Shown: positions 22,319-63,968, numbered from the stretch's first letter. The stretch is DNA of 64,000 nt from Patescibacteria group bacterium (GCA_028716045.1 JAQUQO010000001.1:798343-862342), one strand, 5' to 3'. Numbers and translations are program-made. The notes: generated from the letters alone by a model not told the origin.

Positions 22319-22383
22319 GAAAGGGGTTTTATATTTGATTTTTTTGGCGGAAAAAGTTATTATGCTTTTGATATCTAAACGCG

Positions 22384-22467
22384 CCTTGGTGGTGAAACTG
22401 GCAGACACGCCAGGCCTAGGACCTGGTGGGGGAAACCCCTTGAGAGTTCGACTCTCTCCCAAGGCAC
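22384..22467 (+). tRNA. tRNA-Leu (anticodon TAG), a long-variable-arm class II tRNA.
   Basis: The acceptor stem GCCTTGG/CCAAGGC, D-arm GTG-AAACTGGCAGA-CAC and anticodon arm CCAGG-CCTAGGA-CCTGG are present. The variable arm is TGGGGGAAACCCCTT and the T-arm is GAGAG-TTCGACT-CTCTC. Position 33 is C, which is unusual. The ORF-track entry 22335.. reads through this tRNA and is 5-prime over-extended. Confidence 0.7.
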
Positions 22468-22508
22468 AGTTTCGTTTGCACTTTACACAATTTTATAAGG
22501 AGATAAAA

Positions 22509-23339
22509 ATGGAAAACGAAAAAGGGGAAGAGATTGCCGTGGGTAAAACCAAAATCATTTGGTCAAATTCAGGCAATGTTAATCAGGTGTTGATTGAAAG
22601 TAAGCCAGACATCACCGCCGAAGACGGGGTGAAAAAAGATATTTTAGAGGGCAAAGATATCTTGGCAACGACCACAACCTGCAATGTTTTTACTCTGCTT
22701 AATTCCTCGGGAATTAAAACGCATTTTCTGAAACAGGTGGACGAAAAAACTTTTCTGGCCCGCCGCGTCAGGATGATACCAATAAAAATCGTCCAGCGCC
22801 GTTTGGCCACTGGCTCTTATTTAGAACGCAATCTAGATGTAGCAGAGGGGTTTGTGTTCGAAGAGCTGATTAGCGAACTTTTTTTGAAGGATGATGCCCA
22901 ACACGACCCGTTGATGGTTTGGAATAACGAAGAAAAAGGTTTTGATATTTATGACCCCCAAAAACCATTGTCCGCGGGTAAAAAGAAACATCTCTCCGCC
23001 CGCACGGCGCTTAATTTGCCCTTCAGCCGTGAACAGGTTCTGGAACTGGAGGAGATTGGGAAAAAAGTTTTTCTCGTTTTAGAAAAGGCCTGGGCTAAGG
23101 AAGGTGTCACATTGGTTGACTTCAAAATTGAATGCGGCTTTGATTATGAAACCGGAGAACTGCTGGTCGCGGATGTAATTGACAATGATTCGTGGCGCCT
23201 GTGGCCCGACGGTGATAAGTCCCAAAAAAAAGACAAAGATGTTTATCGCCAGGCCGAAGTTGTTGATGAAGCCAAAAAGGACGAGCTTAAGAAAAATTAC
23301 AAAGAGGTCGCCCTCGCGACCGGAAAATTTGTACTTTAA
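22509..23339 (+). CDS. purC: Phosphoribosylaminoimidazole-succinocarboxamide (SAICAR) synthase-like protein.
   Basis: 'TTTTCNVFTLLNSSGIKTHF', 'MIPIKIVQRRLATGSYLER' and 'LVDFKIECGFD..GELLVADVIDNDSWRLWPDG' match the PurC fold. An AGGAGA RBS precedes the ATG at 22509. Confidence 0.65.
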   Translation: MENEKGEEIAVGKTKIIWSNSGNVNQVLIESKPDITAEDGVKKDILEGKDILATTTTCNVFTLLNSSGIKTHFLKQVDEKTFLARRVRMIPIKIVQRRLATGSYLERNLDVAEGFVFEELISELFLKDDAQHDPLMVWNNEEKGFDIYDPQKPLSAGKKKHLSARTALNLPFSREQVLELEEIGKKVFLVLEKAWAKEGVTLVDFKIECGFDYETGELLVADVIDNDSWRLWPDGDKSQKKDKDVYRQAEVVDEAKKDELKKNYKEVALATGKFVL

Positions 23340-25079: not shown

Positions 25080-28187
<3,108 letters not shown>

Positions 28188-28264
28188 ATAAACATTGTGT
28201 AAACAATAACTCGTTGCTTTTATTTTAGAGATATCTTCTTGATATAAAAAAGAGGGTATCAGTA

Positions 28265-28373
28265 TCTTGGTGGCTTTGGCGGGAGGGAAACACCTGTTCC
28301 CATCTCGAACACAGCAGTTAAGCCTCCCAGCACCGATGGTAGTCTTTTGTAGGCGAGAGTAGGCCGCCGCCAA
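28265..28373 (+). rRNA. rrf: 5S ribosomal RNA.
   Basis: 'GGUGGCUUUGGCGGGAGGGAAACACCUGUUCCCAUCUCGAACACAG...CCGAUGGUAGU...GCGAGAGUAGG' with terminal helix TTGGTGGC/GCCGCCAA. Confidence 0.85.
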
Positions 28374-28408
28374 GATTTTGATACTCTCTTTTTGTTTTTT
28401 AAAATCGC

Positions 28409-30958: not shown

Positions 30959-30997
30959 ATTTTAGTTATTTTTAAGATTTTGGATTAACACGATTTT

Positions 30998-31055
30998 GTT
31001 TAACGTTTGCGTGTATGTGATGTCGTAGAGTACTCAGGATAGAACCACATATGGG
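30998..31055 (+). repeat. Cassette-junction repeat, copy 1 (TTTAACGTTTGCGTGTATGTGATGTCGTA...ATATGGG).
   Basis: It shares a TAACGTnnGCGTrTATnTGATGTyGTA core and a downstream ATATGGG with copies at 32683 and 33957. It abuts the stop codon of the nucleotidyltransferase gene. Confidence 0.7.
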
Positions 31056-31058
31056 ATG

Positions 31059-31826
31059 TTAGGTTAAAGTTAATTTTGGGCGCAATGTTTTTATCACCTT
31101 AAAATCAAAGATATTTTTTGTTATGTTAAGTTTTTTGGTTAATTTTCTAGCTTCTTTTTCTCCGCCCACGTAATCAAACAACTTTTGCACGTTCCTTTTA
31201 TATCTAGATTTTTCTAGCGAACGGAGCGCAATTAATAAGTTATCAATTTCTTTTTTTGAAGGTTGTTTAAACCCTTTAGACATAAATTTAAGACAGGCAA
31301 AAAGATTTGCCGGATGAGCGATGACGTTTACCCTGAGTTTTTTATTTTTTAAATCCGACATGGCATTTGGTAATGAAACAACTTTTTTAGGCCAGTTTTT
31401 TGAGGTGGCCTCTTTCAGAGATAAGGCGAATCCATTAATAGTAAAGTTGGCGTTATTTTTAAGGTTTTTAAAAATACTTTTTTCTCGTGAAATATGTATG
31501 TCAAGAATTAGATAATCGTTGAACCGGTGTTTTGGTTTTTCAACTAATTTCTTTTTTAATACAACCTCATTTTTTCTTTTTATTTTGCCGTAGATAAATC
31601 CCCGCTTTCTTAAATTCTCTATAAATTTTTTCTTATCACCAATAAGGACTAAGTCATAATCACGTTGGGGGAGAGTGGCGCCAAAAATGTTAAAATAGAG
31701 CGCATTTCTTAGAGCGCCCCCTATTAAAAAGATTTTTGTATTTTTAGGGATAGCCGACTTAACATCAACGAGTATGTTAAATATTTTTAAATTTTTCATG
31801 AAAACCGGCAGTTTTTTTAATTCCAT
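31059..31826 (-). CDS. Minimal nucleotidyltransferase of the polyA-polymerase/CCA-adding-enzyme head family.
   Basis: 'IFLIGGALRNALYFNIFG...RDYDLVL' matches GGxxRD...DxD, and 'NANFTINGFAL' matches the RRDFTINA motif of CCA/polyA polymerases. The product is only 255 aa. Confidence 0.6.
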   Translation of the reverse strand: MELKKLPVFMKNLKIFNILVDVKSAIPKNTKIFLIGGALRNALYFNIFGATLPQRDYDLVLIGDKKKFIENLRKRGFIYGKIKRKNEVVLKKKLVEKPKHRFNDYLILDIHISREKSIFKNLKNNANFTINGFALSLKEATSKNWPKKVVSLPNAMSDLKNKKLRVNVIAHPANLFACLKFMSKGFKQPSKKEIDNLLIALRSLEKSRYKRNVQKLFDYVGGEKEARKLTKKLNITKNIFDFKVIKTLRPKLTLT

Positions 31827-31867
31827 ACGGAGTATTTATAAATTAACTTTTTATTAAATTGGCGTCA

Positions 31868-31900
31868 GCGCGTAACGTATGCGATGAAGAAAGGTCGCGC
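31868..31900 (+). repeat. Truncated cassette-junction repeat (copy 5) embedded in a GCGCG/CGCGC hairpin.
   Basis: GCGCG-TAACGTATGCGATGAAGAAAGGT-CGCGC carries the TAACGTATGCG core of the repeat family. Confidence 0.5.
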
Positions 31901-31911
31901 GCATTTCGTTT

Positions 31912-32280
31912 TTAATTTTTTTTCTTTTTGCACCAGCCAACCAGAAATAAAATCCCGATGAGGAATGCCGGCCCGGCAATTATTAAAGAATAAGACAATG
32001 CAGACCATTGAAATTTTGGGGTTATTACGATGTCCGCTAAATACAACAGTCCGGCCAGAATAAAAGTTACTCCTCCCACTATTTCGTATTTCCACGATAT
32101 CAGCAGGACAATTAATAAAATAAGCGCTGGGATATTGTGCATAAATAATCCTAAAATCGTCCCCCAAAATCCATAATTTCCATCAAAAATATCCAATGAA
32201 AACAGCATTAGGAATAAAATAAAGATGATTGATAAAATTCTTGGCGTCCAGTAGATAAATTGGTTAATCTTTTTTTCCAT
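31912..32280 (-). CDS. Integral membrane protein (hypothetical, four TM helices).
   Basis: A hydrophobic ORF. The start is taken at MEKKINQF, the internal Met of the 31912..32373 track ORF. Confidence 0.4.
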   Translation of the reverse strand: MEKKINQFIYWTPRILSIIFILFLMLFSLDIFDGNYGFWGTILGLFMHNIPALILLIVLLISWKYEIVGGVTFILAGLLYLADIVITPKFQWSALSYSLIIAGPAFLIGILFLVGWCKKKKN

Positions 32281-32391
32281 TTTAAAATGGGTTATTTGAT
32301 AAACAGTATATTGCCTTTTCTTTTTTATACAAAATGCTTTTAGAGAGGGGGTGGCGAGCGTGTTACTTGCCACCCCGTTTTTGTCGGGTTT

Positions 32392-32613
32392 TCAATCAAA
32401 GGCGGCGGCGAAACCCACCAGCACCGTGACCAGCACGACGCAGAGGCCTACGCAGAGACCCCATGGGCCAGGAATGATTAGAGCGGTAAAGGTGCCGACC
32501 ACCAGCCCTTTGGCAAGGTTGGTTCTTAGCACCTTCAACTCGGAATCGTTGGGGGTTATTCCCCAATCAAGATACCATACTAATATCCCAGCAAGATAGC
32601 ATAAAATTTTCAT
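32392..32613 (-). CDS. Small membrane protein (hypothetical).
   Basis: A 73-aa ORF with two TM helices. Confidence 0.35.
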   Translation of the reverse strand: MKILCYLAGILVWYLDWGITPNDSELKVLRTNLAKGLVVGTFTALIIPGPWGLCVGLCVVLVTVLVGFAAAFD

Positions 32614-32682
32614 GGATTCCTCCTGGTTACAGGTTTCATAATTGCGGACCCTCTAAAAGCATTTTGTAAAAGAGCAATATTT

Positions 32683-32766
32683 CCGATAACGTATGCGTGT
32701 ATCTGATGTCGTATTAGCAATATGGGCGAAAGGTAGAGAGGAATTAAAGGGGTGAAGGCCCGTAGC
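32683..32766 (+). repeat. Cassette-junction repeat copy 2 plus the conserved 43-nt GC-rich element directly downstream of the fic stop codon.
   Basis: CCGATAACGTATGCGTGTATCTGATGTCGTATTAGCAATATGGG is followed by GGGCGAAAGGTAGAGAGGAATTAAAGGGGTGAAGGCCCGTAGCC. The 43-nt element is about 85% identical to 34129-34171. Confidence 0.7.
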
Positions 32767-32784
32767 CAGTACTCCAATTTAGTT

Positions 32785-33732
32785 TTAGTTTTTTCTTTGC
32801 CGAGTTCTATTTTTCAGATACCGCTCAGTAGTTTCTTTTGACGTTAACCAATTTCTACCTTCTTTATATGCTTCTAATTTTCCCTGTCTAGCCAACAAGT
32901 TTAGATATTTGGCAGAAAAAGGTGTGGTTTTAGATATTTCAGCTAGTGGTACAAATTTCTCCTGTTTTTGGGTTGAAGGAGTTAAAGTTTTGAGGTAAAT
33001 ATCAAGAGAGCGCTCAATGGATTGAGCGATAAATTTTACCAGTGGTTCATACTTACCGCTGTCTGCCTTTTCCAGCACGTCATAATATTTTTTGCGGTCA
33101 TTCTTCAATATAATCACCAACGGATAGCCGGCTTGCATCAATAGTAAATTCATAGTTAGTCGTGCCGTTCTGCCGTTACCGTCAAAAAATGGGTGAATGT
33201 GTACTAATTTGTGATGGAGCAAAGCAGTCAGCTCAACAACGCCAATCTTATTCTTTTGCGCATTGAGCCAATTAATTAAATCCCTCATTTTTTGTGGCAC
33301 TTGCAAGGCGTCTGGTGGCGTGTGTTTTGCTCCGCCGATAATTACATTGGCGTTTCTGTATCGGCCAGCCCACTCTTTGTCCGTTTCTTGAGTAATAATT
33401 TGATGCAAATTTCGTATGAGCATTTCAGAGATAGTGCGCTTTTTATCCTTATCTACCAGGTCGTACAAATATTCCAACGCGGCTTGATGGTCTTTGGCCT
33501 CCAAATGGTCTTTTAAGGGCTTTCCTTTTATAGTTATGCCCTCGTTGATAACTAAAAAGGTCTCTTTTAAAGTTAAAGAGTTTCCTTCAATAGCATTTGA
33601 GTTGTAGGTCATTTCAATTTGAAACTTTTCTCGAAGTTTTTGTACCGCAGATTTCGGTAGGGGACGAAGTTTGTTGAGTTTGGCTAGTTTTTCTTCCAGT
33701 CGAGCTTTTATTATTGGCGATAGGTAAGTCAT
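32785..33732 (-). CDS. fic: Fic-family AMPylase (class II, with N-terminal inhibitory helix) carrying a C-terminal wHTH-like tail.
   Basis: It has the canonical Fic motif 'HPFFDGNGRTARL' and the inhibitory motif 'SNAIEGN' (S/TxxxE(G/N)). A minus-strand promoter (TTGACC-16-TATACT) lies at 33768-33795. Confidence 0.85.
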   Translation of the reverse strand: MTYLSPIIKARLEEKLAKLNKLRPLPKSAVQKLREKFQIEMTYNSNAIEGNSLTLKETFLVINEGITIKGKPLKDHLEAKDHQAALEYLYDLVDKDKKRTISEMLIRNLHQIITQETDKEWAGRYRNANVIIGGAKHTPPDALQVPQKMRDLINWLNAQKNKIGVVELTALLHHKLVHIHPFFDGNGRTARLTMNLLLMQAGYPLVIILKNDRKKYYDVLEKADSGKYEPLVKFIAQSIERSLDIYLKTLTPSTQKQEKFVPLAEISKTTPFSAKYLNLLARQGKLEAYKEGRNWLTSKETTERYLKNRTRQRKN

Positions 33733-33767
33733 AGAAAATGCTTAATATGGTTTAGGTAAGTATTCAT

Positions 33768-33795
33768 AGTATACCATATTAAGGAATTAGGTCAA
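33768..33795 (-). promoter_or_regulatory. Sigma70-like promoter for fic (TTGACC-16-TATACT on the minus strand).
   Basis: I read it on the reverse complement, about 36 nt upstream of the fic ATG. Confidence 0.5.
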
Positions 33796-33938
33796 GTTTG
33801 AGTATTTATTTGTCATTTTTGAGCGACCCCGAGCTGGGTCGAGGGGGGAGCAAAAAAATACCTTTTCCCCTTTATAAAATAAAGATAAAAATAAAATCGT
33901 TAATTTTTTAAAGCCACGCCCGCTCAAAGCGGGCGAAA

Positions 33939-34171
33939 GAAAAGGAATATTTCAGCTAACGTCCGCGTATATCTGATGTTTTACGGAGCGTAGCGGAGCA
34001 AAATATGGGTGGAGGCTCTGGAAGAGCCGAAACCAGATATACGCTGTTATATGATGTACATGTTTTCCTTTGATTTCTGAAAGAAATTGCTTTTACAAAA
34101 GAAAGATCCGATTTTGTTTTTCCGTTTTGGGCGAAGGGCAGAGGGGAATTAAAGGGGTGAATGCCCGAGCC
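33939..34171 (+). repeat. Cassette-junction repeat copy 3 (elaborated) with the 43-nt GC-rich element abutting the helicase-fusion stop codon.
   Basis: GAAAAGGAATATTTCAGCTAAC (an exact 22-mer shared with 37329-37350) + GTCCGCGTATATCTGATGT...ATATGGG. Internal hairpins follow, including GCGTATATCTG/CAGATATACGC, then GGGCGAAGGGCAGAGGGGAATTAAAGGGGTGAATGCCCGAGCC. Confidence 0.7.
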
Positions 34172-34183
34172 CCAAACACCTTA

Positions 34184-37100
34184 TTATTTTACTTTCTGTT
34201 TTGCTGTTTTCCATCTCTCCAAACTACTTGGTCCAAAGATTTTAATAGCATTTTCCTCTGTTATTTTTAGAAGCTCAGTACTTGAAATAATACCTTCTTT
34301 AAATAGAACTAAATATTCACCTCTTTCTAGATTCAATCCTGCTTCAAGTAAATCAAGAGCTTCGGTTGGTATGCCAACTTCAAGTTGTTTTAAGAGTTTT
34401 TCCATTTCTTCCTCACTCAACCCCCCACCTAAGAACATCACGTTGGAAATTTCATATGCTGACCTAAGATAAAAACGTGTTCCATCTGCAAATTTAATAA
34501 TATCACCATACCCAATTTTACCTTGATAAGGTGTTGTGGAATAATTCGTTTCAATTGTTTCTACTGGTGCCCCATGAATCCAGTCGAATAAAATTGCCGC
34601 TCGTTTACATCTTGCGTAGTAACTAAATTGATCAGGTACAAAATTTTGTAGTGCACGCACTCTGTCACTACCATATTTTTGGACAGCTTCTTGTTGTCTA
34701 CTACTTTCTTTTGTTCCACGCTTCATTACTGGTGTGTAAATTCTGTCTAAATCTGGTAACGCCTGTATCAGGATCATCAGTCCTTCAGCATTGAGTTTTT
34801 TAGGATCTTCTTTTTTTAGCATTTCTACCAGTCTCATCGCAGATGGAAAGGATAATGCTGAACGCCCGCATGCCCTGCCAAGTAACGTTAATTGGACCAA
34901 GAGGCCTTCTTGTTCAATAAGTTGTAATTGGATCATTTGGCCAAGAAGATCCGTAACTCTTTGGTTAATTTCAGCGTGCCAATTAGGATTTGCTTTGGTT
35001 GCTAAGTAGCCGCCATATGTATTTGCCAACAACCTCGGTATTTCATTTTTTGGAATTTGATTAATTTGGGCGAGCAACCGAATGATCCAAGTTTCTATAT
35101 GATTAGGATCAAATGATGAAGTTAACTTCTCTAATTCGCCTACAACGTAGCTGTTAAATAAACGTTCTCTATCGTAGCTTGTTTTTGCGTAAATTATTGA
35201 TTTACCTTCTTCGTGGAAACCAACTCTACCGGCACGGCCAGCCATGTTTTTATATTCTGCTACTGTGAAATTGCGTCCATCTTCACCCAAAAATTCTTGC
35301 TCTGCGATAATTACTGTTGATGCAGGTGTGTTAATCCCTGCTGCTACCGTTGTTGTTGCGCCTAAAACACGAACTTTGCTTTTTGGATTACGGTAGAATT
35401 GTTCAACAATATTTTTTTCTTCACGACTCAAGTTTGTATTGTGAAATGCAGTACCTCCTTGAAGACATTGTCTTAACTTCTCTGATGTTGATGATAAATC
35501 CTGATTTGGTAATTTCGAAAGCGCATCAAGTGCTGGCGGCAGGTGAAGATCGTTGGCCAGATAATTTGCAACACCTTCTGAATTGCCTCGCATGTTTCTG
35601 AAAACAATAATTTTTTCATTTTCGTTGGTGAGTAATATTTTTTTCACCAGAGGCACGATAACATCCTGCGCGCTTGGTTGATCACGTCTTTGTTGTATTT
35701 CGTGGGGCTGGAGTAACTGTTCTGTTTTTCTGTTGCCATCCTTATCAATAAATTCATAGGTACCACTTCTGTCTATTACTCCCTCTATTAAAGGAACGGG
35801 GCGATTAGTGGTTACCAATTTATCGCATTGCAACCATTTATCTAGGTCATTAATTCCCCCGATTACAGCTGATAAAGCTATGACTTGTGGCTGTATTCCC
35901 TTTTCGCGACTAGTTAGTAAATAGGTTAATAACAACTCTACAACTATCCCCCTATTCGGATCTGCAATAAATTGCGCTTCATCAATTACAATTAACCCGA
36001 TATTGTTTAGAACCCACGGATTGCCAATGGCAAGATTTAAAAACATTTCGTAGGTTAAAAGTGCTATGTCATATTTCCCGCTTACGAATGGTTTTGTCTG
36101 GTCAACATAGTCACCAGTACATCGCACTATACGCATACCGAGTTCCTTTCCGTATAATTCTTCAAATTGTTCGTATTTTTCGCTTGTTAATGCGCGATAT
36201 GGAAACAGGAAAACAGTTTTTCTTCCTTCGGTAATGGCTTTTGTAGCTGCTAATTCGCCAATGAAGGTTTTACCAGAGCTTGTAGGCGCTACTACTACCA
36301 AAGAATTATTTTCGAAAATGCGCTTTTCGTTAACTGCCAGAAGTTGTAAATCGTTGAGGCCATCCTTAAAATTTGATTCCCATATATTAAGGATATTTTG
36401 AGGGATTCCAAAAATTTTAAGATCTTTAATTGCTTTTGTAATTTTAGTACCTACTGCTTCTGGAAAATACTTAAAATAGTTTTTACCTTTTTTGAGGACT
36501 GGTATTTTAAATCCACCTTTTATTGAGCCAAATAAAACGGGCGTTTGCGTTATACCTAATCGATTCGCTTCAGCATTTACATGCTCCATTACTTTAGAAA
36601 CAATACTCACCACATCGATTTGTGTACCACCATCCTGTAAAATGTCTATTAGTGCTTTTGTTAAGAGGCCATGACCACTGCCAGGAGTTTCATAGGCCAA
36701 TTGATTTACATCCGAGGCTGCTATTAGAATTCTTCCTTCCCCAGTAAATTGTTTGAAAGTATTACCTGGATCCCTCGGTATAGGGCTATTTTCAAGTACT
36801 TTTGCTGGTGCTCCGCCGCTAAAACAGCAATCAAGTACAAATAATATCGTCTTTGCTTTAGAAGACTTAAATAGATTAGCAATTTCTTCAACTGATATTG
36901 TGGATTTTTCCAAATTAGCTAAAGCCGTATTGTATGTTACAAGTTGGTGAGCATGTGTGCCATGACCAGAAAAAGATATTATTACAGCATCTTCTTCTCC
37001 TGCTTTGTTCAATGTCTCTGCGAGCATTGATTGAATGGCTTCTATGGTAGCATTTTCATCAACCAATAAACTCGCCTGCATGTCCGCTATAGTATCGCTA

Positions 37101-37204
37101 AAGAGCGAGAAGAGTGCGGTTGCATCTTTGCGTGCACCTGTTAGGTCTCGAATGTTGGGGTCGATGTGTTTATCGATTCCTATAAAATTTCCGTATATTG
37201 CCAT
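34184..37204 (-). CDS. Fusion of an N-terminal caspase-like (peptidase C14/CHAT-type, His-Cys dyad) domain to an SF2 Ski2/Hel308-family helicase, with a C-terminal winged-helix/HhH-like region. Candidate defence or abortive-infection effector.
   Basis: The caspase region has 'ISFSGHGTH' (His) and 'ILFVLDCCFSGG' (Cys). The helicase has Walker A 'APTSSGKT', DExx 'VIDEAQF' and motif VI 'MAGRAGRVG', plus the Hel308/Ski2-like 'AFHNTNLSREEK...GATTTVAAGINTPASTVII'. About 300 C-terminal residues resemble Hel308 domains 4-5. Confidence 0.75.
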   Translation of the reverse strand: MAIYGNFIGIDKHIDPNIRDLTGARKDATALFSLFSDTIADMQASLLVDENATIEAIQSMLAETLNKAGEEDAVIISFSGHGTHAHQLVTYNTALANLEKSTISVEEIANLFKSSKAKTILFVLDCCFSGGAPAKVLENSPIPRDPGNTFKQFTGEGRILIAASDVNQLAYETPGSGHGLLTKALIDILQDGGTQIDVVSIVSKVMEHVNAEANRLGITQTPVLFGSIKGGFKIPVLKKGKNYFKYFPEAVGTKITKAIKDLKIFGIPQNILNIWESNFKDGLNDLQLLAVNEKRIFENNSLVVVAPTSSGKTFIGELAATKAITEGRKTVFLFPYRALTSEKYEQFEELYGKELGMRIVRCTGDYVDQTKPFVSGKYDIALLTYEMFLNLAIGNPWVLNNIGLIVIDEAQFIADPNRGIVVELLLTYLLTSREKGIQPQVIALSAVIGGINDLDKWLQCDKLVTTNRPVPLIEGVIDRSGTYEFIDKDGNRKTEQLLQPHEIQQRRDQPSAQDVIVPLVKKILLTNENEKIIVFRNMRGNSEGVANYLANDLHLPPALDALSKLPNQDLSSTSEKLRQCLQGGTAFHNTNLSREEKNIVEQFYRNPKSKVRVLGATTTVAAGINTPASTVIIAEQEFLGEDGRNFTVAEYKNMAGRAGRVGFHEEGKSIIYAKTSYDRERLFNSYVVGELEKLTSSFDPNHIETWIIRLLAQINQIPKNEIPRLLANTYGGYLATKANPNWHAEINQRVTDLLGQMIQLQLIEQEGLLVQLTLLGRACGRSALSFPSAMRLVEMLKKEDPKKLNAEGLMILIQALPDLDRIYTPVMKRGTKESSRQQEAVQKYGSDRVRALQNFVPDQFSYYARCKRAAILFDWIHGAPVETIETNYSTTPYQGKIGYGDIIKFADGTRFYLRSAYEISNVMFLGGGLSEEEMEKLLKQLEVGIPTEALDLLEAGLNLERGEYLVLFKEGIISSTELLKITEENAIKIFGPSSLERWKTAKQKVK

Positions 37205-37328
37205 GTTGTGTGGATTTGGTTTATTTAAAATCGTTTTCGGAGCGAAGCGTAGAAAACACCTTATACCCCTCTATAATTAATGAAAAAGAAATTTTAAAAT
37301 TTTTTAAAACAATTGGGCGATAGCCCAA

Positions 37329-37360
37329 AAAAGAAAAGGAATATTTCAGCTAACTACCTA
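37329..37360 (+). repeat. Truncated/diverged cassette-junction repeat (copy 4) adjacent to the recombinase gene. Candidate primary attachment site.
   Basis: It is identical to copy 3 over GAAAAGGAATATTTCAGCTAAC, then diverges (TACCTATATCCTAAC). It lies 70 nt upstream of the tyrosine recombinase ATG. Confidence 0.55.
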
Positions 37361-37432
37361 TATCCTAACTTGTTTAAAATTTGCTTTATTTATGCTATAA
37401 TTTTAACATAAATGTGAAATCAAAAGCAAGTT

Positions 37433-38272
37433 ATGAATACACATTATCGGCCGAGTCGGGACCCGATAATTTTGTTAAAACAAGAGATGAAGTTACGTGG
37501 TTTCAGCGACAAAACAATCAAAAGCTATATCCATTATATTAATGATTGCTTGCGTTTTGCTGGTACGGACCCGCGCAGCGCGTCTCAAAAAGATGTGCGG
37601 GCATATTTGGAATACTTAGCGGACGAGAATCTTTCTGCTTCCACTATTAATACTGCTTATAGCGCCCTGCTGTTTTATTTTGGCAAAATTCTAAACCGTA
37701 ATTTTTTTGTCAAAATACCGCGCATTAAGAAAGAAAAACATTTGCCCGTTGTATTGTCTCACGAAGAAATTAATAGAATGATTGGGCTGTCTGTTAATCC
37801 TAAGCATAGATGTATTTTATCCCTTCTTTATGGCACCGGCGTGCGGGTGAGCGAATTGACGCATATCAAAATGTGCGATATTGATTTGGACCGTATGGTT
37901 TTGCGGATATATCAAGGCAAGGGGAAAAAAGATCGCTTAACAATTTTGCCGGCAACTTTGAAAAAAATATTATCCCAGCAGCAGGGATTGAAAACATCGG
38001 AAGATTTTTTGTTTACCAATGGCCGGGGCGGAAGATTAACCGAGGCCAGCATCCAAAAAATTGTCGCTTTGGCTGCCGCCAAGGCCGGAATAGGGAAAAC
38101 AGTGTCGCCCCATACCCTGCGCCACAGTTTTGCCACCCATTTGCTTGAAAATGGAACTGATATAAGGTATATTCAGGAATTATTGGGGCATGCCAAATTG
38201 CAGACCACCCAAATTTACACGCATGTGGCGAGCAATAATATTAAAAACATAACAAGTCCGCCGGATTTATAA
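37433..38272 (+). CDS. Tyrosine site-specific recombinase (XerC/XerD-like).
   Basis: It has an N-terminal SAM-like core-binding domain and the catalytic R..HxxR..Y region 'SPHTLRHSFATHLLENGTDIRYIQELLGH...TQIYTHV'. It lacks the extra IntI-specific insertion. An extended -10 TGCTATAAT lies at 37394-37402. Confidence 0.85.
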   Translation: MNTHYRPSRDPIILLKQEMKLRGFSDKTIKSYIHYINDCLRFAGTDPRSASQKDVRAYLEYLADENLSASTINTAYSALLFYFGKILNRNFFVKIPRIKKEKHLPVVLSHEEINRMIGLSVNPKHRCILSLLYGTGVRVSELTHIKMCDIDLDRMVLRIYQGKGKKDRLTILPATLKKILSQQQGLKTSEDFLFTNGRGGRLTEASIQKIVALAAAKAGIGKTVSPHTLRHSFATHLLENGTDIRYIQELLGHAKLQTTQIYTHVASNNIKNITSPPDL

Positions 38273-63455: not shown

Positions 63456-63968
63456 ATTGTAAGCAATCCTGTAAGCCGAATTTTGTACCGATTTTGTTGT
63501 TTTCGCAGACAAAATCAGCGATAATCATCTATCTGGTTCCGATATTGCTATCGGAATCAAGCGAGCTACTTTTAATCCTGCCGCTCACAGGCGACGGGAC
63601 TTTGCTCTTGCGCCGGACAGGGTTTGCCGCTGCACCTTGTCACCAAGGGCAGAATAGAGTGGCCTGACGACCTCTCTATACTTTTCACCTTTGTCCTGTC
63701 ACTCGTGAGTGACGGGATAGTATTGTCTCTGTGGCACTTTCCCTGGGCTTAGGAAACAACGCAAACATCTCGAGAATGTTTAGGTTATTTCTTGCTCCCG
63801 GTTGCCGTTAGCAACTGTCCTTTTGACGGCGTTCGGACTTTCCTCCCCCACGCCCTTCAGCTTTTAGTTATATAATTTATTACTTGTATTTTACTTTTTA
63901 AGACATAAAGATTTACATCTAGCTGCAAAAGCTGAAAGGTGTGGGGGCGATTATCCGGATTACTTATA
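63456..63968 (-). ncRNA. rnpB: RNase P RNA (bacterial type, with an AT-rich insertion in the P3 region).
   Basis: The reverse complement has the P4 5-prime strand GGGGGAGGAAAGTCCGAAC and the P4 3-prime strand ACAAAATTCGGCTTACAGG. AAGCCGAA and TTCGGCTT pair exactly around a bulged U. P1 pairs TAAGTAATCCGG with CAGGATTGCTTAC. A GGTGAAAAG (P10-12-like) element is present. The region is GC-rich and free of ORFs. Confidence 0.8.

Follow-up and report, generated by a model that had tools for sequence, protein, structure and literature searches.

A caspase-like protease fused to a Hel308-type helicase: a candidate single-gene defence protein in an integron-like cassette of a Patescibacteria group bacterium

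In the Hachiman immune system, the Ski2/Hel308-like helicase HamB surveys DNA and releases HamA on encountering damage or 3' ends, while Hel308 itself has been described as missing from bacteria (PMC12278908). A partner-less caspase-like protease of Escherichia coli confers phage defence that depends on its catalytic cysteine (PMC12642450), and integron cassettes are documented carriers of phage-defence genes (10.1101/2024.07.02.601719, PMC12614218). A census from 2012 counted helicase domains in 12 prokaryotic metacaspases (PMC3501461). Here we analyse a gene that brings these elements together. It lies on the minus strand (34184-37204) of a 64,000-nucleotide stretch of DNA from a Patescibacteria group bacterium (GCA_028716045.1 JAQUQO010000001.1:798343-862342; hereafter the window) and encodes a 1006-residue fusion of a caspase-like protease to a Hel308-type helicase. 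On the sequence evidence set out below, the protein is probably (we would say with a probability of about 0.6) a self-contained, horizontally mobile defence or conflict protein in which the helicase gates the protease.

The open reading frame (ORF) is uninterrupted, and its translation contains every motif quoted in a first-pass annotation of the window, which had proposed the fusion as a defence effector: SFSGHGTH, FVLDCCFSGG, SSGKTF, IDEAQF, LSAVIG, NMAGRAGR, AFHNTNLSREEK and TTTVAAGINTPA. Domain matches were obtained from Pfam, NCBIfam and PADLOC. Pfam places Peptidase_C14 (PF00656) at residues 17-225 (E 6.5e-16; score 59.2 bits, cutoff 21.4), DEAD (PF00270) at 295-448 (2e-21) and Helicase_C (PF00271) at 585-662 (2e-8); the archaeal helicase domain 4 family (PF21280), at 808-925, scores 25 bits, slightly below its cutoff of 27. 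A database record 100% identical to the protein, on a 927-kb contig, is named 'caspase family protein [Patescibacteria group bacterium]'. At the gene the GC content falls to 0.37-0.39, against 0.42-0.47, and an Rfam search found no RNA family within or near it.

The protease domain comprises residues 1 to ~240 (36485-37204). Its top structural match is MALT1, and it shows the caspase-hemoglobinase fold that characterizes Peptidase C14. Profile search and structural match together identify a true C14 domain and not a look-alike, in line with the first-pass annotation, and they rule out a CHAT identity for this part of the protein. Among named caspase subfamilies the best score was obtained for 'caspase, EACC1-associated type' (NF047832; E 1.2e-26, 93.6 bits against a cutoff of 140). 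Alignment to caspase-7 places H81 (in SFSGHG; 36962-36964) on the histidine of SHG, C127 on the cysteine of QACRG and D125 on the glutamine preceding that cysteine. H81, D125-C126-C127 (36824-36832) and the GKT of the helicase (311-313) are invariant in 34, and then in 84, close homologues, as are D408-E409-Q411, S445-A446-V447 and G656-R657-A658-G659-R660. To look deeper, we used 57 full-length representatives of 50%-identity clusters, reaching down to ~28% identity with the window protein. All 57 retain H81, G82, C127, K312, D408, E409, R657 and R660; D125 is kept in 56 and E172 in 55, and C126 in only 45. Because C127 is conserved in 57 of 57 sequences, against 45 for C126, and aligns to the QACRG cysteine, we assign it as the nucleophile. 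The catalytic dyad that had been read into SFSGHGTH and FVLDCCFSGG is borne out, with its cysteine now fixed as the second of the pair. As these alignments show, both domains, with the protease and the ATPase active sites, are under strong purifying selection.

Metacaspases share the motif D-x-C-x-S-G, whose Asp lines an acidic S1 pocket and confers a preference for basic P1 residues. The D-C-C-F-S-G of the window protein fits this pattern, with D125 as the predicted S1-pocket residue, and the protease is probably specific for Arg or Lys at P1. Downstream of the catalytic cysteine, a flexible loop equivalent to the caspase intersubunit linker (residues 129-150, 36755-36820) has the lowest predicted local distance difference test (pLDDT) values of the protease domain in the predicted model, 47-63. 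It contains S140-P141-x-x-R144, of which P141 and R144 are invariant in one alignment (A1) and at least 90% conserved across the 84 close homologues. An autoprocessing site in this loop is possible for the subfamily of the window protein only, because S140-P141-x-x-R144 is not conserved in the deep family.

A linker of residues ~241-265 (36410-36484), delimited by conservation and by the secondary structure of the model and containing an invariant F247-P248, joins the protease to the helicase. NCBIfam Hel308 models align to the latter end to end, over residues 266-992 (E 1e-73 to 9e-88; profile positions 8-693 of 739), which bears out the proposed union of a caspase domain with a Hel308/Ski2-type helicase. 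The scores miss the Hel308 equivalog cutoffs widely (295.4 against 887 for NF002654 and 248.2 against 1200 for NF040935), and by its sequence the helicase is a member of a Hel308-like paralogous family, not Hel308 proper. Among solved structures, archaeal Hjm/Hel308 proteins are closest to the helicase half (E 7e-60 and 4e-57), followed by Pol theta, Brr2 and Ski2/Mtr4; HamB (8vx9) reaches just 2e-19. Foldseek comparison with whole Hel308-type chains gave template-modelling scores of 0.78-0.84.

All five domains of the Hel308 layout can be traced, although the limits given here for the first three are approximate. RecA1 (residues ~266-465, 35810-36409), aligned to Hjm/Hel308, carries the Walker A GKT (311-313, 36266-36274), DEAQ (408-411, 35972-35983) and SAV (445-447). 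RecA2 (~466-690, 35135-35809), aligned to 2zj2, 2va8 and 2p6r, holds motif VI, MAGRAGR (654-660, 35225-35245), and a region aligned to the Hel308 beta-hairpin. The winged-helix domain 3 (~691-785, 34850-35134) rests on alignment to Hjm and Sulfolobus solfataricus Hel308 and on whole-chain superposition. The first-pass annotation had suspected winged-helix, ratchet and helix-hairpin-helix (HhH) domains in a C-terminal region of ~300 residues. Beyond domain 3, the residue alignment extends into domains 4 and 5: the ratchet domain 4 (~786-925, 34430-34849) and an HhH-like C-terminal helical domain 5 (~926-1006, 34187-34429), the Hjm alignment running through residue ~991. Within the ratchet helix (859-876, 34577-34630), K867/R868 and W875 align with the K...W of the Hjm and S. 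solfataricus Hel308 helix; W875 is kept in 53 and K/R867 in 52 of the 57 deep representatives. Alignment through the winged-helix, ratchet and C-terminal helical domains indicates that the apparatus for 3'-to-5' translocation on single-stranded DNA (ssDNA) is retained. The C-terminal 740 residues are thus predicted to be a working Hel308-type 3'-to-5' DNA helicase.

The fusion belongs to a widespread family. Databases label its members 'caspase family protein' or 'DEAD/DEAH box helicase', and the matches listed include more than 120 full-length homologues. The best 120 agree with the window protein in length and in their C14 and helicase Pfam content at 55-88% identity; they come from Nitrospirota, Acidobacteriota, Planctomycetota, Gammaproteobacteria, Bacilli and others, with identities of 55-67% spanning unrelated phyla. 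Relatives turned up in at least 258 of 185,579 species, each represented by one genome; the scan worked by pattern, and the figure is a lower bound. The 80 loci that we retained represent about 17 bacterial phyla and one Methanotrichaceae archaeon. Cultured carriers include Bordetella bronchiseptica, Pseudomonas luteola, Cupriavidus, Niastella, Spirosoma, Scytonema, Bradyrhizobium and, on plasmid pREB8, Acaryochloris marina. Full-length copies occur on 17 plasmids, and among 20 matching plasmid records 6 are conjugative and 4 mobilizable. No full-length copy was found in phage records, and the Bordetella homologue, used as a DNA query against 5,426 complete E. coli genomes, had no match there, which is a weak test. 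The gene moves among phyla, plasmids, genomic islands and, here, an integron-like array; identity across phyla, sporadic occurrence, plasmid carriage and the local dip in GC content together point to horizontal spread.

When the helicase half alone was searched against 1.84 billion cluster representatives, 1030 matches were found at E ≤ 1e-30. Among the best 150 of these, essentially all proteins with an N-terminal extension of ~255-300 residues have a caspase domain, and in 172 two-domain proteins the identities of the caspase and helicase parts to the window protein are correlated with r=0.95. The near-constant presence of a caspase domain in the extension and this correlation indicate that the fusion is old, stable and co-evolving, and not a recent accident.

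The closest helicase relatives that lack a caspase (P0178, P0182, P0192, P0197, P0203, P0209 and P0230 in alignment A7; loci L086-L088) share 28-36% identity, measure 875-966 residues and begin directly with the helicase. They end in a conserved C-terminal domain of ~200 residues with the motifs G-E-P-D-x-L-L and V-V-G-R-P-D-F, for which a profile search of the PDB returned nothing meaningful. At L086 and L088 the gene that follows the caspase-less helicase encodes a Schlafen AlbA_2/HATPase_c_4 protein. Judged by its sequences, this clade may be a nuclease-bearing sister system. A single representative, P0160 (1020 residues), has an N-terminal extension of caspase length that is not a caspase (residues 1-246); by eye, its 'IGIDIKDFS' and 'GGDGFMA' look cyclase-like.

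We also called and clustered the ORFs around the gene in the 80 loci. The most widespread neighbour occurs in 12 loci, all of a single proteobacterial clade, and no neighbour is common to more. Flanking genes stand in every orientation; at 12 or more loci the gene runs against both of its neighbours, and it can therefore work as a lone transcription unit. The caspase-helicase gene needs no conserved partner, and the description as a 'single protein' made at the outset is upheld. Serine recombinases recur beside the gene in 11 loci, tyrosine integrases in 9, and HsdM and HsdR in 6 each; a set of KAP nucleoside triphosphatase (NTPase), QueC-like and TatD genes, which PADLOC recognizes as QatA/QatB, recurs in 7-8 loci. 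Across the 80 loci and the plasmids, homologues are linked to islands, plasmids or cassettes and not to housekeeping genes, again as anticipated. When the 25 leading families from one half of the ±2 neighbours were counted, PADLOC models were matched by QatA (7), PDC-S32 (3), type I restriction endonuclease (2), PDC-S54 (2), PDC-S16 (2), Aga HEPN (2) and PD-Lambda-3 (2), and once each by MkoA, MkoB, QatB, type II restriction endonuclease, AbiEii and PDC-S02. In four loci hsdR lies 18-58 bp upstream of the caspase-helicase start. On plasmids, the gene is found with NB-ARC, TIR and TPR proteins (pREB8), with a Tn3 transposase, PLD and Fic/VbhA (Hymenobacter) and with UvrD and a multiubiquitin/ThiF (E1) system (Agrobacterium).

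Several of these neighbourhoods contain recognizable systems. A complete Qat-like set (QatA with E=0, QatB, QueC-like and TatD) occupies positions +1 to +5 in L053, L058, L062, L067, L070, L071, L072 and L075, and the proteobacterial clade with the Qat set has an upstream gene pair (378 and 298 residues, with one AbiEii match) that resembles an AbiE-type module. In several unrelated phyla (L020, L021, L054 and L059; L043, L005, L017, L042 and L055) the caspase-helicase begins 18-58 bp behind a type I hsdR gene or sits within a type I restriction-modification (R-M) locus.

For this protein we infer a defence role, a DNA trigger, an activation step, a P1 preference and protease substrates along the following lines. 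The Hel308 module would be both sensor and ATP-driven switch, loading on DNA with 3' single-stranded tails, on forks or on replication and recombination intermediates that stem from an invader or from DNA damage. Loading and ATP hydrolysis would relieve autoinhibition of the N-terminal caspase or dimerise it; caspases and MALT1 are known to be activated by proximity-induced dimerisation. In the subfamily of the window protein, the caspase may first process itself in the loop after the catalytic cysteine. The active protease would then cut host proteins, invader proteins or both after Arg or Lys, and cleavage would lead to growth arrest or cell death before the invader spreads. We propose the specific activation route, a DNA-loaded helicase that releases or dimerises the caspase, tentatively, and would sooner bet against it than on it. 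Even odds seem right for the larger claim: that a true Hel308-type helicase gating a caspase on the same chain constitutes a one-gene immune system of a new sort, which has spread horizontally over at least 17 phyla and which bacteria of the candidate phyla radiation (CPR) have taken up as an integron cassette.

Several observations weigh against an immune function of this kind. Mean column identity among the 84 homologues from many phyla is 64%, unusually high for a gene in an arms race, and no hypervariable sensor region was seen. At position 144, the candidate self-cleavage site, only 26 of the 57 deep representatives have Arg and 4 have Lys. The exchange of effectors on the helicase chassis, a hallmark of defence modules, is not demonstrated: the C-terminal domain of the caspase-less clade gives a single weak Pfam match (Mrr_cat, E 3e-4), and the N terminus of P0160 gives none even at E ≤ 10. 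Finally, the number of immediate (±2) neighbours that match PADLOC models at E ≤ 1e-8, at least 20 of 137, is a descriptive count without a matched background control.

Some of the same features would suit a mobile DNA-repair or replication-rescue enzyme, in which the Hel308 motor translocates 3'-to-5' on damaged or stalled DNA and the tethered protease clears protein roadblocks such as DNA-protein crosslinks or stalled complexes. Helicase-assisted proteolysis operates in eukaryotic crosslink repair; the helicase is nearer to repair-type Hjm/Hel308 (E 1e-57 to 1e-60) than to HamB (2e-19) and has lost none of the five domains; homologues from different phyla are very highly conserved, with no variable sensor region seen; and exonuclease, UvrD and SNF2 genes appear in some plasmid and island contexts. 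Such an enzyme is nonetheless unlikely given how sporadically the gene occurs (in at least 258 of the 185,579 species genomes, with no match to a DNA search in 5,426 E. coli genomes) and given that it is not linked to repair or replication operons, its neighbours being recombinases, transposases, R-M, Qat, Mokosh and AbiE genes. The window copy, moreover, lies in a cassette array beside SoFic and scores far under the Hel308 equivalog cutoffs. Carriage on 17 plasmids, with 10 of the 20 matching plasmid records conjugative or mobilizable, raises instead the question of whether the target is another mobile element or the protein stabilises its own carrier through exclusion or addiction, the helicase sensing conjugative ssDNA or rolling-circle intermediates and the protease arresting the cell. 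Some copies adjoin partition genes (pREB8), the window copy is part of an integron-like array, no full-length phage-borne copies were found, and Hel308 prefers 3'-tailed ssDNA (PMC12278908). Most copies, however, are chromosomal and adjoin classical anti-phage systems, and the sequence gives nothing to separate an anti-plasmid from an anti-phage role; we rate a role confined to plasmids or to carrier maintenance as improbable.

The division of labour within the protein could also be reversed. The helicase would then be the effector, unwinding or displacing replication intermediates of the invader, and the caspase a regulator in cis, a pro-domain that cleaves itself and has no substrates in trans. 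The flexible, partly conserved loop with an Arg after the catalytic cysteine could serve such a purpose, and in the caspase-less sister clade the helicase chassis does occur without the protease. However, H81, C127, D125 and E172 are kept as strictly as the ATPase site, whereas the candidate self-cleavage Arg is not, and this difference disfavours a cis-acting pro-domain. A complete caspase fold used purely in that way would be unusual, and the known bacterial caspase-like immune proteases work in trans (PMC12799240, PMC12642450). We therefore give this arrangement little credence, and retain the helicase-gated protease as the preferred description.

In the window, the gene occupies the first cassette of an integron-like array. 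Upstream of it, a divergent tyrosine recombinase of 279 residues (37433-38272, plus strand) is IntI/XerA-like, with PF00589 and a SAM-like N domain. It scores 248.9 bits with NF040815, 'tyrosine recombinase/integron integrase', above the cutoff of 220. The integron integrase model TIGR02249 gives it 233 bits, short of the 265 required, in a match that breaks into two stretches and skips profile positions after ~177, and the protein is shorter than classical IntI. Two identical 25-nt copies of AAAGAAAAGGAATATTTCAGCTAAC (plus strand), at 37330-37354 and 33936-33960, bracket the 3394-bp cassette 1; a third copy, with 3 mismatches, follows the Fic gene and a weaker fourth lies at ~31000. On the strand of the gene, the core of the repeat reads AC followed by GTTAGCTGAAATATTCC and resembles the integron GTTRRRY box. 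The upstream copy (37330-37354, minus strand), composed of an R' box GTTAGCT and 18 further nucleotides, forms an attI-like junction 79 nt from the recombinase start. At the other end, an attC-type site (R''-L'', centre CCACCCATATTT, L'-R'; 33936-34076, minus strand) closes the cassette as an imperfect palindrome with a bulge, with ssDNA fold z scores of -2.2 and -2.35. The sites after the Fic gene (32666-32709) and after a nucleotidyltransferase-like gene (30984-31023) show no fold, only the R' half being left. The array thus has the integron layout of cassettes bounded by attC-type sites, with an attI-like site beside a divergent recombinase, and this recombinase presumably inserted the caspase-helicase cassette. 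The gene had been described in the first-pass annotation as the integrase-proximal cassette, next to a Fic gene; the 25-nt repeats, their membership of an attC-type site family and the match of the Fic protein to the SoFic model agree with that placement.

The site family extends well beyond the window. A 22-nt core, GTTAGCTGAAATATTCCTTTTC, was found exactly in more than 120 metagenome contigs among the matches listed, where it lies between consecutive same-strand genes of diverse kinds (60-1705 residues), with the next start ~120-160 nt downstream. In six contigs the core lies 56-106 nt from a divergent recombinase homologue (xer/IntI-like), and in a seventh 557 nt from one. The full site, seen in L104 (240-420) and L105 (8455-8630), is a palindrome of ~165 nt, AAAAGAAAAGGAATACATCAGCTAAC / AGCGCATAAGCG ... 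CCACCCATATTTGCC ... CGCTTATGCGCGGAC / GTTAGCTGAAATATTCCTTTTCTTTT, that folds as ssDNA at -46 to -57 kcal/mol with unpaired bases in its 3' arm, which is the attC architecture; the 22-mer forms that arm. The window site (34076 to 33936) is a slightly decayed homologue that shares the central CCACCCATATTT motif. We rejected a dif/IMEX reading of the 25-nt repeats, as Xer sites beside a single xer gene, since conservation spans ~85 nt and attC-type palindromes of ~165 nt stand between cassettes. Among the genes beside the site in the metagenome contigs are those for EcoRI-type and other DNA methylases, EcoRV, Eco57I, control proteins, Mokosh/Hhe-like helicase-nucleases and SoFic. The more than 80 other caspase-helicase loci do not carry the cassette site, and the 88% homologue at L085 has neither site nor recombinase. 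Confinement of the site to the lineage of the window makes the cassette one lineage's vehicle for a gene that travels by several. The window (30984-38272) and loci L089-L168 together outline a sequence-conserved attC/cassette system of Patescibacteria-type genomes, and our literature search brought up no account of such integrons in CPR bacteria.

The stop codon of the caspase-helicase gene is immediately followed by a conserved 3' cassette module of 85 nt, denoted D1 (34106-34190, minus strand). A copy with 72% identity follows the Fic stop codon (32701-32785), and the element is partly kept after the 88% homologue (L085:11019-11075). Its 30-nt core, GGGCATTCACCCCTTTAATTCCCCTCTGCC, recurs, often exactly, in at least 26 site-bearing contigs as part of an element of ~60-85 nt between gene and attC. 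D1 folds no better than shuffled sequences, and we discarded the idea of a structured RNA or terminator. The next cassette encodes the SoFic-like Fic protein (32785-33732, minus strand; PF02661; PADLOC SoFic E 1.7e-38 over residues 11-307). Copies 88-89% identical follow the attC core in L113 and L135, and the R' half-site lies at 32666-32709 in the window; the positions in L113 and L135 mark Fic as a shared cassette. The Fic gene of the window has a promoter-like site of its own at 33795-33768. The third unit of the array (30984-32690, minus strand) has half an attC at each end and contains a hydrophobic ORF of 73 residues (~32392-32613, by eye), a DUF7670 protein (31912-32373) and a weakly matching PolyA_pol-like nucleotidyltransferase (31059-31826). 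A 21-nt inverted repeat with 95% complementarity (32325-32345 and 32651-32671) flanks the 73-residue ORF.

Elsewhere in the window, a 23S rRNA match (25081-28189) spans 3109 nt against a model of 2925 positions, which suggests an insertion; a 5S rRNA (28266-28375) follows, and no 16S rRNA precedes it within the window. An RNase P RNA match (63456-63966) spans 511 nt against 367 model positions. Insertions in 23S rRNA and an enlarged RNase P RNA are common in CPR genomes. ARAGORN reports a tRNA-Leu(tag) at 22383-22467, absent from the Rfam gathering list, inside a mechanically called ORF of 334 residues (22335-23339) that is probably spurious.

If the proposed function is correct, the protein represents a compact, partner-free immune design in which an ATP-driven DNA helicase is wired directly to a caspase. 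It would join the sensing of genome integrity by Ski2/Hel308-like helicases, as in Hachiman, to immunity executed by proteases, as in caspase-like effectors, gasdermin, type IV Thoeris and Canu, and it would parallel, on one bacterial polypeptide, the eukaryotic logic that leads from a nucleic-acid-sensing helicase to a caspase (RIG-I-like receptor, CARD, caspase). If DNA ends or forks activate it, the protein would monitor genome integrity and respond with proteolysis in place of DNA cleavage. Complete Hel308-type helicases exist in bacteria as mobile genes, a point relevant to where HamB and eukaryotic helicase-caspase signalling came from, and the locus reveals a sequence-conserved attC/cassette system with which Patescibacteria stockpile defence genes. 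The cultured carriers B. bronchiseptica, P. luteola, Cupriavidus and Acaryochloris (pREB8) make the model readily testable.

As to known systems, PADLOC-DB v2 has no model that spans the whole protein, giving partial matches to the HamB core and a separate caspase match, and a full-text literature search found no description of a caspase-Hel308 fusion. The first-pass annotation was to this extent right in setting the protein apart from characterised defence systems; the architecture is not unseen, however, given the size of the family and the count in the 2012 census. The caspase-Hel308 family is functionally uncharacterised, though large and not rare. With Hachiman it shares a Ski2/Hel308-like superfamily 2 (SF2) helicase coupled to a lethal effector, and the PADLOC HamB models match its helicase core at ~1e-31. 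They cover that core only (for example residues 292-489 and 294-721), and neither the protein nor a conserved neighbour in the 80 loci supplies HamA/DUF1837 or a metallo-beta-lactamase (MBL) pro-nuclease partner. With HamA lacking and only the helicase core matching HamB, membership of Hachiman was rejected. HamB has NAH, degenerate winged-helix and OB-like parts where the fusion protein has the Hel308 winged-helix, ratchet and HhH domains. In protease-fused Hachiman (HamMAB), DNA sensing and ATP hydrolysis activate a protease (PMC12799240), but that protease is a trypsin fused to HamA, whereas here a caspase is fused to the helicase itself.

EACC1-associated caspases and caspase-fused Avs/STAND proteins likewise combine a caspase with a variable NTPase or sensor module (PMC7159879, PMC12642450); their sensor is a STAND NTPase, in place of the SF2 helicase found here. 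A gene for an EACC1-type single-transmembrane protein was sought, and no suitable ORF exists in 37205-37432 or 33733-34183; no conserved upstream gene was seen across the 80 loci, where the gene upstream often has the opposite orientation and where small, very divergent ORFs of fewer than 70 residues were not searched exhaustively. With a score below the NF047832 cutoff and no EACC1 gene beside the caspase-helicase, assignment to the EACC1-caspases was also rejected. The caspase-like effector of type IV Thoeris and the caspase of E. coli 27-18K are, like the protein described here, terminal caspase-fold proteases without a pro-toxin partner, and mutation of their Cys abolishes defence (PMC12642450, PMC13069673); what sets them off, however, is a TIR-made signal or some other route, and none is described as fused to a helicase. 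Canu provides a bacterial MALT1-like caspase in phage defence (PMC12799240), yet it comprises several genes, and its Ig-like domain, its partner CanB and its substrate, a gated MBL pro-nuclease, are all absent here. The cassette resembles defence-carrying integron cassettes in its attI-like and attC-type bounds, its divergent recombinase and its SoFic, R-M and Mokosh-like sister cassettes; it differs in its very large size (3394 bp) and in a recombinase that scores under the TIGR02249 cutoff. With archaeal Hel308/Hjm, finally, the protein shares all five domains, all SF2 motifs and the K/R...W of the ratchet helix, and it departs from them in its N-terminal caspase of ~260 residues and in being bacterial, sporadic and mobile.

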